Below the pieces are notes generated by a model. That model was not told where the DNA came from. It did no database searches and worked only from the letters and a program-made list of their open reading frames with translations. This document shows positions 26,411-56,429 of a stretch of DNA of 64,000 nt, piece by piece. The translations under genes and the position numbers were made by a program. This DNA is from an uncultured Candidatus Saccharibacteria bacterium (GTDB taxonomy: Bacteria; Patescibacteriota; Doudnabacteria; UBA920), in assembly GCA_964594755.1 (NCBI GenBank), contig CAZQMO010000004.1:4311-68310 (forward strand). Direction: 5' to 3'. How positions within the stretch are numbered: position 1 is the first letter of the stretch; every line of letters starts with the position of its first letter.

Positions 26411-26518
26411 ATATTTTGTCTCAGCTAATTAAAAATTAAGCTAGGTTATTATAGTAATTCTAAGGTCTTGTGTCAATCTAGAGTTTGTTCTATAATGTTC
26501 TAATTGTAGGAGGAACTC

Positions 26519-26920
26519 ATGAAGAAGATTTGGAAATACTTGGTCAGTTTGCTTCCGGACAACTTAGTTATTGAACGATATTGTGAGGTGGGGTCAATCT
26601 ATGGGGATTTAGAAAGCTACTCTTACATTGGAGAGATTCCAGGTTTACAGAATTGGTTGGCGAAGTGGGTCTTTTGGGAAGAAGAAATTGTTAGGCGAGG
26701 ATACCGAGCAATTTCTCTGGACAATTTCATTCTGTACGGAGGAGGATATGTTGAAAATCTACCCAATGTACAGCTGCGGCTTTTAGGTGAAGAGCCTAAA
26801 TACCATGCCAGAATCCGGCAAGAACAGCTTGCCTTAGGTAAACCTGAGGGCGGTATGGTAAGGCAACACTCTGATGGTTCATTTACAGGATCGTATATAG
26901 TCCCTTCAACTGAAGAGTAA
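26519..26920 (+). CDS. hypothetical protein (133 aa)
   Basis: ggaggaact SD; no family recognised. Confidence 0.45.
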   Translation: MKKIWKYLVSLLPDNLVIERYCEVGSIYGDLESYSYIGEIPGLQNWLAKWVFWEEEIVRRGYRAISLDNFILYGGGYVENLPNVQLRLLGEEPKYHARIRQEQLALGKPEGGMVRQHSDGSFTGSYIVPSTEE

Positions 26921-26953
26921 CAACTAGTGCTATGGGTGTGTTGCTCGCTATCG

Positions 26954-28861
26954 TTAGACTAATTGGCTTTTAATGGTCTGAGCTTTAGTTTTTCCAACGA
27001 GTTTAATCAGCTCTTCAATCGGCGCGCGTTTGATTTGATCAACAGTGCCGATTTTTTGTTTGAGTAATTTTTTAGTTTTTGGTCCGATTCCTGGAATAGA
27101 ATCAAGAGCAGATTTCGTAGCCTGCTTGCTGCGCAGAGATTTATGGAAAGTTATTCCAAAGCGATGTGCTTCATCACGGAGCCGTTGCAACATTTGAAGA
27201 ACTGGGTTGTCATGACTAAGCACAATCGGTTGTGATTTACCTGGCAGAAAGATTTCTTCGATTCGCTTAGCAAGGCCAATCACAGGAATTTTTAATTTTG
27301 TATCTTTCAAAACCTGTACAGCCACTCCTAGCTGTCCTTTACCACCGTCTATTACTAATAAATCTGGTGCCGGCCAATATCCCCCTCCTTTTAAGGAGGG
27401 GTTAGGGGAGGTGTTAACCCCCTCCAGCTCCCCCTCAAGAGGGGGAGTGATACGCGCCAAACGGCGTTCTAACATCTCGCGCATCATCGCAAAATCATCT
27501 GGAGTTTGTTTCCGCGTAATTTTAAACTTTCGATATTCAGATTTAGCAGCTTGACCATCTTTAATCACCACCATACTCCCGACCGGATTGGTTCCTTGGA
27601 TGTTGCTAATATCGTAACCTTCAATGCGTCGTGGTAAATTTGGGAGTTTAAGTAGCTTCTTTAGGTTACTAAGAATTTCTTGAGTTAAGTCAGCGTTACT
27701 GGCTTGGCTACGTTGCCACTTGAGTAGATGCTCTTTGGCATTTGTTACTCCCATTTGCACAAGCTTCTGTTTCTCTCCTCGGCTTGGAATTGTGATTTTG
27801 ATCGCTTGTTTGCTTCTGGTTCGTAGTAGCTGCTCTAGCAATGAATGGTTGGGCAGTTCAGCTTGAACAAAAATGTCTGTCGGAAGATCAGTTGCCTGCG
27901 CATAATACATTTCCGTAAAAGTTTGCAGGACCTGAGCGGCTCTCTGGTCTTCGGGGATTGCCAGCATGTTGTTGTAAATAAAATTTTCTTTATCCTTAAG
28001 TTTGCCTTCCCGAACCTTAAATAGATTTACAGCCGCAGAAAGATTGTCGATGAAAACAGAGATGATGTCCCAAGAAACTTTCCGAGTCAAGACCGTAAGC
28101 TGTTTTTCTTCTAGAACGCTAATAGCCATAAATTCATCTCTCAGTCTCGCCGCTCTTTCGAATTGTTTGCGTTTGGATGCAGTCTTCATCTCTAACTGTA
28201 GCTGTTTTTTAATTGGCGCAGTCTGCCCGGATAAGAACAGAGAAATTTTCTGCAAATGCTGCTCGTATTCTTCCAAGCTCATCAATCCAATGCAGACGCC
28301 AGGACAGCGGTGCAAAAAATAATAGAAGCAGGGGCGCTTGCCGACTTCTTTGTTGGCGCAAAAATGAAAGACGCGCCTAACTAAATCCAAAGTTTGTCCA
28401 ATCTTTTTGGTAGAGGAGTACGGTCCAAAGAAGCGATCTCTGCTATCAGACTTTTTTTCTACTTTTCTGACGTAACTAATCTGCGGAATCTGGGTGCTGT
28501 GACTGATGTTTATAAATGCATAATTTTTATCATCGCGCAGCATGATATTATACGGCGGCATATACTCTTTGATGAGAGTATTTTCCAAAAACAGGCTTTC
28601 CAGTTCGCTTTGGACAACGATGTAGTCAAAATCTACCGCTTCTGCCATCAAGAAGGGAAGTTGAGGGCGATTATCAGACTTTCCGAAGTACTGTGATAGC
28701 CGAGATTTTAGCCGCTTGGCCTTACCCACATATAAAACAACTCCTTTATCATCAAGGAATTTATAAACACCGGGTTTTTGAGGGACGTCTTTAAGTTTTT
28801 CTCTCAATTGACTCATGAGTTTATTATAGCTAGAATACGCCCTAGAATAAATGGAGGGCAT
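26954..28861 (-). CDS. uvrC: excinuclease ABC subunit C
   Basis: GIY-YIG domain (GVYKFLD...VLYVGKAKRLKSRLSQY), UvrBC-binding region, RNase H-like endonuclease domain and C-terminal (HhH)2. True start may be the internal MSQLREK (28816). Confidence 0.85.
   Translation of the reverse strand: MPSIYSRAYSSYNKLMSQLREKLKDVPQKPGVYKFLDDKGVVLYVGKAKRLKSRLSQYFGKSDNRPQLPFLMAEAVDFDYIVVQSELESLFLENTLIKEYMPPYNIMLRDDKNYAFINISHSTQIPQISYVRKVEKKSDSRDRFFGPYSSTKKIGQTLDLVRRVFHFCANKEVGKRPCFYYFLHRCPGVCIGLMSLEEYEQHLQKISLFLSGQTAPIKKQLQLEMKTASKRKQFERAARLRDEFMAISVLEEKQLTVLTRKVSWDIISVFIDNLSAAVNLFKVREGKLKDKENFIYNNMLAIPEDQRAAQVLQTFTEMYYAQATDLPTDIFVQAELPNHSLLEQLLRTRSKQAIKITIPSRGEKQKLVQMGVTNAKEHLLKWQRSQASNADLTQEILSNLKKLLKLPNLPRRIEGYDISNIQGTNPVGSMVVIKDGQAAKSEYRKFKITRKQTPDDFAMMREMLERRLARITPPLEGELEGVNTSPNPSLKGGGYWPAPDLLVIDGGKGQLGVAVQVLKDTKLKIPVIGLAKRIEEIFLPGKSQPIVLSHDNPVLQMLQRLRDEAHRFGITFHKSLRSKQATKSALDSIPGIGPKTKKLLKQKIGTVDQIKRAPIEELIKLVGKTKAQTIKSQLV
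27378..27445. repeat. in-frame GC-rich triple-palindrome insertion within uvrC coding sequence
   Basis: cccctcctt-tt-aaggagggg, aggggagg...ccccctcc and ctccccc-tcaaga-gggggag encode PPLEGELEGVNTSPNPSLKGG, inserted between the conserved RRL and PDLLVIDGGKGQ positions of UvrC. Confidence 0.6.
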
Positions 28862-29368
28862 ATGTCAGAAAAAACCAGTAAGATGCAACAGTGGTTGATC
28901 CATGAGCTTAAAAATGGATTAACGTCGGATTTAGTTTTTCATTCATTCCTGTTTGGTGTGCTTACAGTGATAGTGAGCCAAAACTTTTATGATTATTTAT
29001 CAGGATGGGGTGCGATCCTGGGATGGTCTATCATCCTAGCCTTGATGGGATTACTTTTGTTTCTGTTATTTCACATCCAGAAGGTTGATCAGTACTTGAC
29101 TGCGCAGAATGAGATCTCTGACCTGGTTCGTGAATGCCTGGAACAGGTTGAGCTACTTCGTCCCAATTTACAGAGCGGCACGGTGTATACTTTGACAGAA
29201 GGGTATTATGCCTATAGTGTTGTGAAGTCTGTAGCTAGGCTGCTAGAAAACTCTTTAGGTCTCGGCCGTGTTGAGCCAGGCCCAATCAACTTTGATGGAG
29301 GAAAATATTTTGTGAAAATTCAATTGCACTATGATGGTAAACTTCCGCAACAAGAGCTTACGGGGTAG
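28862..29368 (+). CDS. membrane protein, hypothetical
   Basis: Start chosen at [11 protein letters not shown], divergent from uvrC; two TM helices. Confidence 0.45.
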
Positions 29369-29433
29369 GCTCTTGTTTTTTGTTGAAAATTCTGCTAGCG
29401 TTATTAAAGTTTGATATTTCATTTAATTTGAAC

Positions 29434-32316
29434 ATGGCTAAGAAAAATACTAAGAAAAACTCTGATTCTAGTAGTAATCCAGAGCACAAAATTGTTATCC
29501 GTGGTGCACGCGTACACAATCTTAAAAATGTAGACTTAGATTTACCGCGCCATAAGTTGATTGTCATGACAGGCTTGTCGGGTAGCGGCAAGTCTTCTTT
29601 AGCTTTTGATACGATTTACGCTGAAGGCCAGCGTCGGTATGTTGAATCACTTTCCGCTTATGCTCGTCAGTTCATTGGCTTAATGGATAAACCAGATGTC
29701 GATAAGATTGAGGGCCTTAGTCCAGCGATTTCGATTGATCAAAAGAGCGCCTCTCATAATCCACGTTCAACTGTAGGAACTGTTACTGAAATCTATGATT
29801 ACATGCGGTTGCTTTATGCTCGCATTGGGATTCCTCATTGTCCGGAGTGTGGTCTTAAGATAGAAGGTCAAACTTTGCAAGCTATGGTAGATAATTTATT
29901 GGCTGTACCTGAAGGAACCCGAGCCATGTTGTTGGCTCAAGTCATTAAAGATCAAAAAGGTGAACATAAATTAGTGTTTGAGCAACTCAAGAAATCGGGA
30001 TTTTCACGGTTGCGCGTTGATGGGCAGATGATGGATTTAACTGAAGCAGCTAATTTGAATCTGGATAAGCAAAAGAAGCACACTATTGAAGTTATTGTTG
30101 ACCGTTTAGCTATTAGTAGAGAAGATCGAGCCCGTTTATCAGAAAGTTTGGAAAAGGCTTTGGACTACGGTGATGGTTCAGCGTTGGTTTTGGTTATGGA
30201 TGGTGACGCTATTAAGAAAGAAATTCCATTGTCGCAGAAGTTTGCTTGCCCGAAGGGTCATGCTATTAGTTTAACTGAACTTGATCCACGCGAATTTTCA
30301 TTTAACAGCCCTCATGGTGCTTGTCCGGATTGTAAAGGTTTGGGTACCAAGCTAACCGTTGAACCTGATTTAGTGATTCCTAATCCAAAGCTAACCTTGG
30401 CCGAAGGCGCGGTTCGTCCTTGGAGTAAAACTACTTCCCGAGTGTCCTGGTATTCCCGAGTGTTGGAATCCATTGCCAATGAGTATGGTTTTTCGGTGAG
30501 CGTTCCAGTTAAAGATTTATCAAAGAAAGCTATTGATATCATTTTGTATGGCACTGGTGGTAAGAAAGTTACCATGCCAACCGAAGGCGGCCGTGCTTAT
30601 CAAGCTAATTTTGAAGGTGTCTTGGCTCAACTAGAGCGTCGTTGGCGCGAAACTGATTCAGAATACATGCGTAGTGAGATTGAAAACTATATGCGTATCC
30701 GCAAGTGTTCAACTTGTGGTGGCAAACGACTTAAGCCAGAGGTATTGTCTGTGACTGTGGGTGGAGAAGGTATTGTTGATGTTTCCAATAAGTCTATTGA
30801 GGACGCGGCCATCTTTTTTGAAAAACTACCAACCAATTTAAACGCCAAAGAAATGGCCATTGCCAAGCTGATTCTCAAGGAAATCACTGCGCGGTTGCAG
30901 TTTTTGTTGGATGTTGGCTTGTCTTATTTGTCTTTAGATCGTGGCGCCGACACTTTGAGTGGTGGAGAAGCACAGCGTATTCGCTTAGCAACTCAGATTG
31001 GTTCTGGGTTAACAGGGGTGCTCTATATTTTAGATGAACCTTCTATTGGTTTGCACCAACGGGACAACACCCGATTATTGGGTACGCTCAAGAATCTTCG
31101 TGATTTAGGTAACACTGTGATTGTGGTTGAACATGACGAAGAAACTATTCGCGAAGCTGACCACGTGGTAGATATCGGTCCTGGCGCTGGTAAGCACGGT
31201 GGTGAAGTAGTTTCAGAAGGAACCCCTGAAGCTATAGAAAAAGATAAAAATTCGATTACCGGACAATACTTAAGTGGTAAAGAGTTGATCGAGATTCCAA
31301 AGCGTCGTCGTAGCGGTAACGGTAAGAAGTTGCAGATTATGGGTGCAGTAGAAAACAACCTTCAGAATGTGAATGTTGATATTCCTCTAGGTAAGTTTGT
31401 TTGTATTACTGGTGTTTCAGGCAGCGGAAAATCAACTTTATTGAATGATATTTTAGCCAAAGCTTTGTCTAAGTATTTTTGGAACAGTAAAGATGAACCA
31501 GGTGAGCACAAAAAACTGCTTGGGATTGATCATATTGATAAGATGATCAACATTGACCAGTCACCGATTGGTCGTACGCCGCGTAGCAACCCAGCAACTT
31601 ATACAGGGATATTTACTTACATTCGGGATTTATTTGCTGATACCCGCGAGGCCAAAATGAAAGGGTATAAAGCTGGCCGCTTTAGTTTTAACGTTAAAGG
31701 TGGCCGTTGTGAAAAATGCCAAGGTGATGGTGTGATTAAAGTAGAGATGAATTTCTTACCTGATGTTTACATCACTTGTGAAGAATGTGCTGGAAAGCGC
31801 TATAATCGTGAAGCTTTGGAAATTCATTACAATGGTAAAACTATTTCTGATGTCTTGGAGATGACTGTTGATGAAGCAAAGCAGTTCTATGCGAATGTGC
31901 CACCAGTAAAGCGTAAGCTTGATACTTTATCAGAAGTAGGGTTGGGTTATATGCATTTGGGTCAGAACGCTACAACTTTGAGTGGTGGGGAAGCACAGCG
32001 TATTAAACTCGCTACTGAATTATCTCGCGCTTCAACTGGTCGCACTTTGTACATCTTAGATGAGCCAACAACTGGCTTGCACTTTGCGGATGTAAAGCGA
32101 CTAATTCATGTTTTGAATCAACTGGTGGAGAAGGGTAATACTGTAATTGTTATCGAACATAACTTGGATATGATTAAGACCGCCGATTGGATTATTGATC
32201 TTGGCCCAGAAGGCGGCGATAAAGGTGGTAAGGTGGTTGCCTCAGGCACCCCAGAAGACGTTGCAAAAGTTAAAGGTAGTTTTACCGGACAGTATTTAAA
32301 GAAAATGCTTAAATAA
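29434..32316 (+). CDS. uvrA: excinuclease ABC subunit A
   Basis: Two ABC ATPase modules ([12 protein letters not shown] and [13 protein letters not shown]), LSGGEAQRI signatures, and zinc fingers ([13 protein letters not shown]...CEEC). Confidence 0.9.
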
Positions 32317-37588: not shown

Positions 37589-37669
37589 AAATTTGTGAGC
37601 TTGGCCAATTTCTTTGTCGCCAGCTCCGCTACTCGCTGGCTTCGCGAACTTGGCACAATTCACAAATTT
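37589..37669. repeat. GC-rich IR-bounded element, copy A (minimal form) in grpE-dnaK spacer
   Basis: aaatttgtgagcTTGGCCAATTTCTTTGTCGCCAGCTCCGCTACTCGCTGGCTTCGCGAACTTGGCacaattcacaaattt. Terminal IR aaatttgtga..ttggcc / ttggc..tcacaaattt. The core is 36/37 nt identical to copies B and C. Confidence 0.8.
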
Positions 37670-41649: not shown

Positions 41650-41652
41650 TTT

Positions 41653-41680
41653 AAACCCCGCCGGAGGCGGGGTTTTTATA
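41653..41680 (+). terminator. rho-independent terminator
   Basis: aaccccgcc-gga-ggcggggtt followed by ttttata. Confidence 0.75.
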
Positions 41681-41775
41681 AGGCCGGCGGGTCCTGTCGC
41701 TGTCCACCTCCATCCATCCTCCTTCGTGCGGGTGGATGGAGGTCCGCCGGACTGCGCCACCCGCCGGTTAAAAGA
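41681..41775. repeat. GC-rich nested-palindrome element downstream of dnaJ
   Basis: 11-bp stem acctccatcca / tggatggaggt nested inside ccggcgggtcc / ggtccgccgg; ~70% GC. Produces spurious ORFs on both strands (41587-41821). Confidence 0.5.
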
Positions 41776-41829
41776 GGAGAAGAGAAGAAATACGTGGTAT
41801 AATATAGAAAACTTCAATTAGAAACAAAC

Positions 41830-53872: not shown

Positions 53873-53987
53873 ATTTTTGGCCAATTTCTTTGTCGCCAGC
53901 TCCGCTACTCGTTCACCGTTCCGCCAGCTGGCGGATTCACTACGGCTCACTCGTTGCTCGCTAGCTTCGCGAACTTGGCTCAAAAAT
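53873..53987. repeat. GC-rich IR-bounded element, copy B (long form) in der-LCP spacer
   Basis: atttttGGCCAATTTCTTTGTCGCCAGCTCCGCTACTCG-[ttcaccgttccgccagctggcggattcactacggctcactcgttgctcg]-CTAGCTTCGCGAACTTGGctcaaaaat. Terminal IR atttttggccaa / ttggctcaaaaat. Same plus-strand orientation as copy A although the flanking genes are on the minus strand. Confidence 0.8.
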
Positions 53988-56310: not shown

Positions 56311-56429
56311 TGATTCCTGGATTTGCCCAATTTCTTTGTCGCCAGCTCCGCTACTCGTTCACCGTAGCTTTCACTACGGCTCACTCGTTGCTCGCTGGCT
56401 CCTCGAACTTGAACTAACCAGAAATCATC
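56311..56429. repeat. GC-rich IR-bounded element, copy C (intermediate form) in lepB-hisZ-like spacer
   Basis: tgattcctggatTTGCCCAATTTCTTTGTCGCCAGCTCCGCTACTCG-[ttcaccgtagctttcactacggctcactcgttgctcg]-CTGGCTCCTCGAACTTGaactaaccagaaatcatc. Terminal IR gattcctgg / ccagaaatc. The internal module equals B's minus the ccgccagctggcgg palindrome. Confidence 0.8.

Follow-up and report, generated by a model that had tools for sequence, protein, structure and literature searches.

How does a GC-rich palindromic segment come to lie, with the reading frame preserved, inside the conserved repair gene uvrC, and to what class of sequences does it belong? The locus that raises this question is a 64,000-nt stretch (hereafter the window) from an uncultured Candidatus Saccharibacteria bacterium placed by GTDB in the Doudnabacteria (assembly GCA_964594755.1, contig CAZQMO010000004.1, positions 4,311 to 68,310). 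The analysis presented here indicates that the insert is a DNA repeat in origin and not a protein feature. By architecture it belongs to the BoxC/PIT/triplex-motif class of bacterial repeats, and it works like a Rickettsia palindromic element (RPE) without being one. We accordingly regard it as probable that the insert is an RPE-like in-frame passenger, i.e., a copy of a dispersed GC-rich BoxC/PIT/triplex-type repeat that was taken into the uvrC frame. The host gene and the insert, in window coordinates, are:

26954-28861, minus strand: uvrC coding sequence, 635 aa, recognized from its open reading frame (ORF), homologues and Pfam domains
27382-27447, minus strand: the whole insert, 66 nt, a tail-to-tail inverted doublet of two triplex-motif units
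27377-27451: the insert plus two adjoining codons per side, translated as residues 471-495
Peptide of the insert: PPLEGELEGVNTSPNPSLK

The UvrC protein retains its full set of domains (GIY-YIG, UvrC_M, UVR, RNase H-like and HhH in Pfam), and its best matches in homologue searches are annotated as Candidatus Doudnabacteria or Patescibacteria. The insert differs from its surroundings in GC fraction (0.62 vs 0.42 for uvrC, with 42% for the window) and encodes I471-Y495 (ITPPLEGELEGVNTSPNPSLKGGGY), which lies between R466-R467 and W496, all of them invariant; four of the six frames of this copy are closed, and uvrC reads one of the two open ones. An earlier reading made from the letters alone (hereafter the sequence-only reading) had described a palindromic segment in frame within uvrC at 27378-27445, composed of three perfect back-to-back hairpins and adding about 21 residues. 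The in-frame palindromic segment is indeed present, spanning 66 nt and leaving the frame of a 635-aa UvrC intact, but its best limits are 27382-27447. Because it replaces a native 9-residue loop (VNPKNKADA in the closest homologue, P0002), the net gain relative to that protein is 16 residues rather than 21. Repeat searches recovered two of the hairpins as perfect 9-bp inverted repeats, namely CCCCTCCTT/AAGGAGGGG (27382-27390/27393-27401) and CTCCCCCTC/GAGGGGGAG (27428-27436/27439-27447), along with 8-nt terminal inverted repeats (27380-27387 and 27439-27446); the middle pairing, that of GGGGAGGT (27405-27412) with ACCCCCTC (27417-27424), is imperfect. A description as two inverted units of the BoxC/PIT/triplex-motif type, each a hairpin followed by a mirror repeat, suits the segment better than one as three successive hairpins:

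27382-27412, plus strand: unit A, with pyrimidine (Y) arm CCCCTCCTT (27382-27390), loop TT (27391-27392), purine (R) arm AAGGAGGGG (27393-27401), linker TTA (27402-27404) and mirror (third-strand) block GGGGAGGT (27405-27412); the strand reads 5'-CCCCTCCTTTTAAGGAGGGGTTAGGGGAGGT
27413-27416: spacer of 4 nt, GTTA (TAAC on the coding strand), separating the two third-strand blocks
27417-27447, minus strand: unit B, with Y arm CTCCCCCTC (27447-27439), loop TT (27438-27437), R arm GAGGGGGAG (27436-27428), linker CTG (27427-27425) and mirror block GAGGGGGT (27424-27417)

Each unit thus runs from a pyrimidine arm through a short loop, the complementary purine arm and a 3-nt linker to a mirror copy of the purine arm; this third block is neither a direct nor an inverted copy of that arm, and what had looked like a middle hairpin is just the pairing of the two mirror blocks. 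A pyrimidine stem, a complementary purine stem and a mirror purine (G/A or G/T) stem constitute the class II intrastrand triplex motif (PMC4666352), for which the ITxF definition specifies stems of 6-15 nt with at most one mismatch and loops of 1-6 nt (Holder 2015, PMC4666352). Units A and B both have stems and mirror blocks of the class II purine type, with a first loop of 2 nt and a second of 3 nt (TTA and CTG, respectively), and each yields eight allowed triads (CCCCTCCTT/AAGGAGGGG/GGGGAGGT for A; CTCCCCCTC/GAGGGGGAG/GAGGGGGT for B). A search of the window for the three-block architecture returned only these two units, against 0.02 expected from shuffled sequences, and the arrangement is therefore not a product of chance. 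We infer from the symmetry that both units may be able to form triplexes.

Is this build peculiar to one gene? As a query we took the 18-mer CCTCCCCTAACCCCTCCT (minus strand; mirror block, linker and pyrimidine arm) and searched 596 Gb of sequence with one genome per species. By our estimate, an 18-mer would find only a handful of matches in a collection of this size by chance. The search recovered it in at least 120 loci from many phyla, the matches listed including Patescibacteria (Doudna-, Andersen-, Uhr- and Saccharibacteria), Nitrospirota, Poribacteria, Bacteroidota/Prevotella, Cyanobacteria, Acinetobacter, Methylococcaceae, Planctomycetota, Chloroflexota and others. Common to the aligned copies is the pattern ACCTCCCC-TAA-CCCCTCCT(T)-loop-(A)AGGAGGGG-RA, with loop sequences that are genome-specific and many copies in some genomes (Andersenbacteria MHHS01, Prevotella CAMVJQ01 and Poribacteria OZ242351 are rich in them). 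The same loci also hold hairpins outside the search pattern that have the same build with other stems (GAGAGGG then GGGAGAG/GGGTGAG; AGGGAGG then GGAGGGA; GAGGAGA then AGAGGAG). When the third block, located 3 nt past the hairpin, is compared with the mirror of its own R arm, it gives 6.36 of 7 allowed triads, compared with 5.02 ± 0.06 once the tails have been permuted. With the analysis confined to distinct non-canonical units, the corresponding values are 5.19 and 4.16 ± 0.15, and perfect tails are present for 20 different purine arms. The linker in these hairpin-plus-tail units is most often TTA (125 cases), followed by CTA (19), TTG (14) and CTG (7). The tail is made of purines and T, with T often standing in for A opposite an A-T pair, a substitution that an antiparallel (purine-motif) triplex permits. 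The three-block symmetry is a property of the family, with covariation. Taken with the shuffles and the 18-mer loci, this covariation marks the motif as repeated and non-random in its occurrence, with one doublet only in the ~68 kb of this genome that was covered. Two other interpretations of the third block were considered and dropped: a direct repeat, which scores lower than mirror symmetry on the non-canonical units (4.34 vs 5.19), and a G-quadruplex, since many variants in the family (e.g., GAGAGGG-CTG-GGGAGAG) do not have four G-runs.

Tail-to-tail doublets account for 24 of the 131 sampled copies, with spacers of 4-68 nt, and intergenic copies of the unit are present in other Doudnabacteria genomes. 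One such intergenic unit, in a Doudnabacteria metagenome-assembled genome (MAG; L060 5503-5580), ends ...GAAGGAGGGAAATG, so that its purine arm could double as a Shine-Dalgarno (SD) sequence for the downstream ATG. Rfam returned no family match at either gathering or permissive thresholds, only noise such as miRNA-like hairpins, and the viral contigs contributed just eight matches, which does not indicate carriage by phages. A metagenome scan with hairpin 1 retrieved 93 loci, of which ~40 forward-orientation matches were inspected; these were mostly from higher-GC organisms with variants of their own, and none was a Doudnabacteria uvrC or a copy from the same genome. As a separate observation, a longer composite repeat, ATCCCCCCTTTGAAGGGGGGAAGTTCAGTCCTCCCCCTCAAGAGGGGGAGTTAGAGGGGGTAAATTTGGAT, which combines two hairpins with a TTA linker and a mirror block, is found on many contigs of a few metagenomes (L153, L180, L183, L185, L186, L189, L214, L215 and L220; mainly Ga0214471 and Ga0299906, also Ga0302046 and others); it looks like a high-copy variant of the triplex-motif class.

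The family also enters other genes. About a dozen of the 131 sampled copies (~1/10) lie within long ORFs with substantial protein on both sides, and Pfam identifies the carriers as Lgt, a class II aminoacyl-tRNA synthetase (aaRS), ValRS, IleRS, CysRS, HisRS, MnmA, YfhO, an alpha-L-arabinofuranosidase, a TPR/alpha-2-macroglobulin protein and DNA polymerase I (PolA). These in-frame copies were found through the DNA search and not through a peptide search; the tandem insert peptide, when run against a set of 5.8 billion proteins, gave 11 candidates, none of them useful. The peptides that the copies encode come from four frames on both strands (...KEGLGEV, ...GGVRGG, TSPNPS..., PPLTPP...), and the element is therefore inserted regardless of orientation. 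The RPE-like behaviour that the sequence-only reading had proposed is thus matched elsewhere, the unit being in frame in Lgt, MnmA, ValRS, IleRS, CysRS, HisRS and PolA; its companion claim that in-frame palindromes of this kind are uncommon outside Rickettsia fails, as this family lies in frame in genes of several phyla.

What do the orthologues of the host gene reveal? In an alignment of 120 UvrC homologues the native loop at this position reads RVNPxNxxDAWP, and most orthologues are without the insert, in keeping with the earlier suggestion of a repeat-derived insertion into a conserved repair gene. Five further UvrC proteins (P0003, P0004, P0013, P0015 and P0024) carry the same insert at this place, their DNA showing the same doublet, and the frame is kept in all six carrier genes. 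One possible cause voiced beforehand, a sequencing or assembly artefact such as a chimeric join at a GC-rich hairpin, has the unusual composition in its favour; because five more assemblies, obtained independently, have the insert at this position, so that all six, which come from different samples, show it in frame at the same codon, and because the surrounding gene is collinear with that of relatives, we consider an artefact extremely improbable.

A weightier question is whether the segment could be an ordinary lineage-specific loop of UvrC under selection at the protein level, with the palindromes being incidental; the sequence-only reading had named a similar insertion shared by related UvrC proteins as the sign of such a loop. 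The sharing is real, in that five related proteins have a similar peptide at the same position with the frame maintained throughout, but the carriers do not form a clade: in a neighbour-joining UvrC tree each is nested among insert-free relatives that have the native loop (P0005, P0018 and P0025 are among the insert-free sister lineages). Moreover, across the six genes the identity of unit 2 is 94%, rising to 97% at third codon positions, whereas the adjoining 120-nt flanks, themselves highly conserved, reach only 41-48% at such positions; the conservation is therefore at the level of DNA and not of the peptide. Where stems differ, both sides have mostly changed together (L004 hairpin 1, L003 hairpin 3), and in L005 one hairpin has decayed while the uvrC gene is intact. 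The central spacer is 6 nt longer in L003 and L006, and its sequence differs between lineages. The insert is not an ordinary lineage-specific loop, since its carriers are dispersed among relatives that lack it and it is the nucleotides that are conserved. As the 18-mer also recurs at no fewer than 120 unrelated loci and is read, within other genes, in four frames and in either orientation, and as the loop is predicted to be disordered (see below), we give that explanation very little credence.

The same stretch of UvrC has received other insertions. Unrelated palindromic families occupy this loop in further homologues (outer arms GTCATCCTGA...TCAGAATGAC in L127 and L128; GTCATTCC...AATGAC in L129; a composite in L130), where they encode the in-frame peptides ...HPEALAEGSQ..ILRSAQND, ...VILNEVKDL..SSDAPQND and ...VIPSEEGIQ..GGIRNDK (L127 P0034, L128 P0104, L129 P0101, L130 P0114), and the UvrC turn is therefore a recurrent landing place. 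A second site, at residue ~138, carries another in-frame insertion of the triplex-motif family in P0013, P0015 and P0034 (peptide PLSKGRVGGVKTSPVPSLKRRGS):

L004 10363-10433: second-site insertion in the uvrC of P0013, an inverted doublet
L127 3416-3445: second-site insertion in the uvrC of P0034

Given this second doublet in L004, some uvrC genes carry two doublets. As an aside on UvrC architecture, twelve homologues (P0016, P0017, P0021, P0023, P0029, P0037, P0039, P0041, P0057, P0101, P0112 and P0117) have a conserved N-terminal extension of 60-100 residues (…TIYIVKREGKTVFVGRLKQIRRRF…) preceding the GIY-YIG domain, which is absent from the UvrC of the window.

How can the protein accommodate the extra residues? 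The insertion site is a 9-residue turn in the RNase H-like 5'-incision domain. The alignment to Thermotoga maritima UvrC (2NRT) breaks precisely at the insert, query residue 103 being matched to chain residue 81 and query residue 129 to chain residue 82; as these two chain residues are adjacent, T. maritima UvrC has no loop there. In an AlphaFold model (mean predicted local distance difference test score [pLDDT] 84.5) the insert lies between a helix (456-469) and a strand (501-505), and pLDDT falls below 50 for residues 478-492. The structure model that the sequence-only reading had called for thus places the insert in a surface loop, and the insert-encoded part of that loop is predicted to be disordered. 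The catalytic-motif residues D417, D505-G-G-K-G-Q and H566 are invariant in the homologue alignment.

The nucleotide-level conservation invites a further explanation, namely that uvrC has co-opted the insert for cis-regulation of its mRNA and keeps it for that purpose, internal SD-like AGGAGG/GGAGG motifs and a stable RNA structure serving to slow or tune UvrC translation or the decay of the mRNA. The RNA fold of the 66-nt insert is indeed strong (-45.2 kcal/mol, z = -3.2, with none of 200 shuffles equally stable), AAGGAGG and GGAGGGGG are present, and the stems stay paired through compensatory changes. Against such a role, most orthologues do without the insert, the L005 hairpin has decayed with the gene intact, Rfam offers no match, and the element is seen in either orientation in other genes as well as between genes. 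We therefore hold a regulatory function to be unlikely, if somewhat less so than a selected protein loop.

We next turn to the genomic setting, which bears on how the element reached this gene. No second copy was found in the window, either with three mismatches or by the three-block search, nor in 4.2 kb more of the contig, making ~68 kb in total; 20-mers taken from the insert likewise matched nowhere else in the window when up to three mismatches were allowed, and shuffles gave none. The search for further genes carrying the same palindromes in this genome was thus unrewarded over those ~68 kb, and the likeness that had been drawn to intergenic GC-rich elements of the window did not hold, these being tRNAs, terminators and an unrelated ~95-nt repeat family. 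The last of these, TTGGCCAATTTCTTTGTCGCCAGCTCCGCTACTCG..., is GC-rich, intergenic and non-palindromic, with two ~95-nt copies that are 84% identical and one truncated copy (53877-53975, 56323-56409 and 37600-37650), and is probably what the sequence-only reading had in mind. A different intergenic segment, 41651-41790, contains a terminator-like hairpin (AAACCCCGCC/GGCGGGGTTT) with a T-run and, after these, a long inverted repeat that is rich in GC (GGCCGGCGGGTCC...GGTGGATGGAGGTCCGCCGG...); Rfam gives no match to the segment at the gathering score.

The closest homologue, P0002 (locus L001), is without the insert. Over 21 kb of synteny this genome is 75-80% identical to L001, but a 3-kb block (~26480-29480 vs L001 9400-12400) comprising a small ORF, uvrC and the downstream ORF is 90-97% identical, and within it there is an island of low identity:

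~27180-27780: low-identity island of ~600 nt, 68-82% identical to L001, surrounding the insert

A block of high identity with such an island implies that uvrC is a mosaic produced by recombination. The block is evidence of a recent homologous exchange between Doudnabacteria lineages, and a mosaic gene would fit the reports of locally variable DNA around triplex motifs. The view that the 75%-identity tract around the insert was itself an imported patch was dropped on comparison of the whole locus, since an identity of 75-80% is usual for the two genomes and it is the 90-97% block that stands out. Protein identities do not decide the direction of exchange between this genome and L001.

These features could bring to mind a non-autonomous transposon of the REP/REPIN (repetitive extragenic palindrome) or MITE (miniature inverted-repeat transposable element) type, inserted de novo and independently in each lineage by a RAYT (REP-associated tyrosine transposase) or an insertion sequence (IS) enzyme. 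The REPIN-like doublet build, the 8-nt terminal inverted repeats, the genome-specific loops with many copies and the patchy occurrence among orthologues all speak for it. On the other side, there is no visible target-site duplication, no GTAG head and no transposase seen, none having been reported for BoxC/TM either (PMC4666352); in different phyla the unit is near-identical, whereas REP/RAYT pairs are species-specific; and 68 kb hold one copy. We judge this rather improbable, though the strongest of the competing accounts.

An RPE-like passenger of BoxC/PIT/triplex type thus remains our preferred explanation, and its history may be sketched as follows. The element would have reached uvrC by one of two routes, repeated insertion at a hot spot that tolerates it or exchange of short homologous patches between uvrC alleles, as suggested by the six carrier lineages nested among insert-free ones, the other families at the same loop and the mosaic uvrC. 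At the DNA level it could extrude hairpins, and its G-rich strand, when single-stranded, could fold into a Mg2+-dependent purine-motif triplex, by analogy with the E. coli relative. The host most likely derives no benefit from it, the element being a tolerated passenger. Several observations weigh against this account. The triplex is deduced from symmetry only, the E. coli motifs are intergenic, and the TMECO sequence pattern of E. coli is unmatched. With a single copy in ~68 kb, the element in uvrC may be a relic of long standing or have come in with an imported allele, and as the island makes up about 1/5 of the 3-kb block, it would hold the insert by chance with a probability of ~0.2. Four carriers have identical junctions (R-I-S/T-P ... 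G-E/G-Y/I-W), which is awkward for independent random insertions, and the flanks of ±60 residues around the insert track the gene tree, which recombination over large tracts would not readily explain. Finally, neither a target-site duplication nor an associated transposase was found, and Holder et al. saw no link to mobile elements (PMC4666352).

More tentatively, and with the odds in our view against it, one might extend this account to BoxC/PIT-type motifs in general: instead of intergenic oddities of Enterobacteria and Cyanobacteria, they could be pan-bacterial, DNA-constrained repeats that routinely colonize coding sequences in the manner of RPEs in Rickettsia, with recurrent landing sites (the UvrC turn, residue ~138). 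Their core, ACCTCCCC-TAA-CCCCTCCT...AGGAGGGG, which is nearly the same in all phyla, would then point to a conserved mechanism of propagation or maintenance, one that recognizes the hairpin-plus-mirror structure. A further possibility under the same heading is that a triplex-forming, instability-prone element in uvrC might act as a switch of repair capacity. Intrastrand triplex repeats have been described as intergenic, and here a family of this type with a nearly invariant core is translated within essential genes (UvrC, aaRSs, PolA) in Patescibacteria, Bacteroidota and further phyla. If general, this would explain many odd P/G/E/S-rich insertions in MAG proteins, counsel caution to annotators and structure predictors dealing with such segments, furnish natural experiments on insertion-tolerant protein loops, and give a sharper form to two questions, the means by which BoxC/PIT elements spread and the reason for the conservation of their sequence from phylum to phylum.

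How, then, does the insert compare with known systems? Searches of the literature with the literal sequences and peptides, and for palindromic insertions in the candidate phyla radiation (CPR), found nothing relevant, and a coding context for the BoxC/PIT/triplex class was not found described in the literature searched. MITE-like repeats (ERIC/RU, cyanobacterial MITEs) are likewise small, non-autonomous and capable of in-frame fusion with host genes (PMC2759123, PMC10969869); they differ in having terminal inverted repeats, target-site duplications and IS relatives, and a mirror-repeat block is not a MITE feature. The uvrC insert has the 8-nt terminal inverted repeats, and no duplication is evident between the filled and empty uvrC sites, nor is there a visible IS partner or a known IS relative. 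With REP/REPIN-RAYT systems it shares short GC-rich palindromes, frequent inverted doublets with a short spacer and high copy number in the family, but REPs are extragenic and species-specific, with a GTAG-type head and a co-occurring RAYT. The uvrC copy is not extragenic and has no GTAG head; the sequence in which a RAYT could be sought covers only ~68 kb of the genome.

The closest structural parallel is with BoxC and its relatives. Hoyne et al. 2000 reportedly dealt with BoxC, PIT elements and intrastrand triplex motifs. The uvrC-type repeats resemble this group (BoxC/PIT/TM/TMECO of E. coli, other Proteobacteria and Cyanobacteria) in their three blocks, the 3-nt second loop that is often TTA, the high GC content and the dispersed copies, in the inverted pairs that join a TTA-linker unit with a unit having another linker, and in being tied to locally variable DNA. 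E. coli is where triplex motifs were first seen, under the name BoxC and later that of PIT elements; a survey of them was made by Holder et al. 2015 (PMC4666352). The E. coli TMECO consensus is CCCTCNCCC-N3-6-GGGNGAGGG-N3-GGGNGAGGG, with TTA (type A) or CCG (type B) as the second loop and five inverted pairs, each comprising an A and a B (PMC4666352). It forms a Mg2+-dependent purine-motif triplex in vitro and has been linked to local genome instability (PMC4666352), its folding having been examined by circular dichroism, NMR, UV melting and dimethyl sulphate footprinting (PMC4666352). TMECO is "always located intergenically", marks loci that are unusually rearranged between strains, and has no detected promoter or terminator role nor any link to transposons or mobile elements (PMC4666352). 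The uvrC insert departs from it in stems (CCCCTCCTT/CTCCCCCTC vs CCCTCNCCC) and in the first loop (2 nt vs 3-6); because of these two differences the TMECO sequence pattern has no match in a regular-expression scan of the window. It departs further in context, the uvrC copy and ~10% of the sampled relatives being translated in frame whereas TMECO is intergenic, and in host, which here belongs to the Patescibacteria (CPR), where the triplex is predicted from symmetry. In a separate set of loci, the exact TMECO/BoxC pattern (e.g., CCCTCTCCCCAATTGGGGAGAGGGTTAGGGTGAGGG) occurs at L011 102-137, L042 6965-7000, L050 413-448 and L107 102-137, as well as in L035, L121 and L158; the first four are from Andersenbacteria and other Patescibacteria, TMECO having been reported from Proteobacteria (PMC4666352). 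As the exact pattern is found beside the uvrC-type variant in Patescibacteria and at other loci, the variants coexist.

In behaviour, the parallel is with RPEs. These are elements of ~100-150 bp in Rickettsia-specific families that are not homopurine/homopyrimidine (Ogata et al. 2000, as summarized in PMC10969869). Compared by description, the uvrC insert falls outside those families: at 66 nt and in a Doudnabacteria-like host it is set apart by length and taxon, and it differs further in sequence and architecture, in its homopurine/homopyrimidine blocks and in its occurrence across many phyla. What the two have in common is the way in which they inhabit genes, as in-frame palindromes in unrelated housekeeping genes whose extra peptide is compatible with the fold and which are present in some orthologues and absent from others; in entering unrelated genes in frame and in a fold-compatible manner, the uvrC copy and the copies in other genes alike behave as RPEs do.

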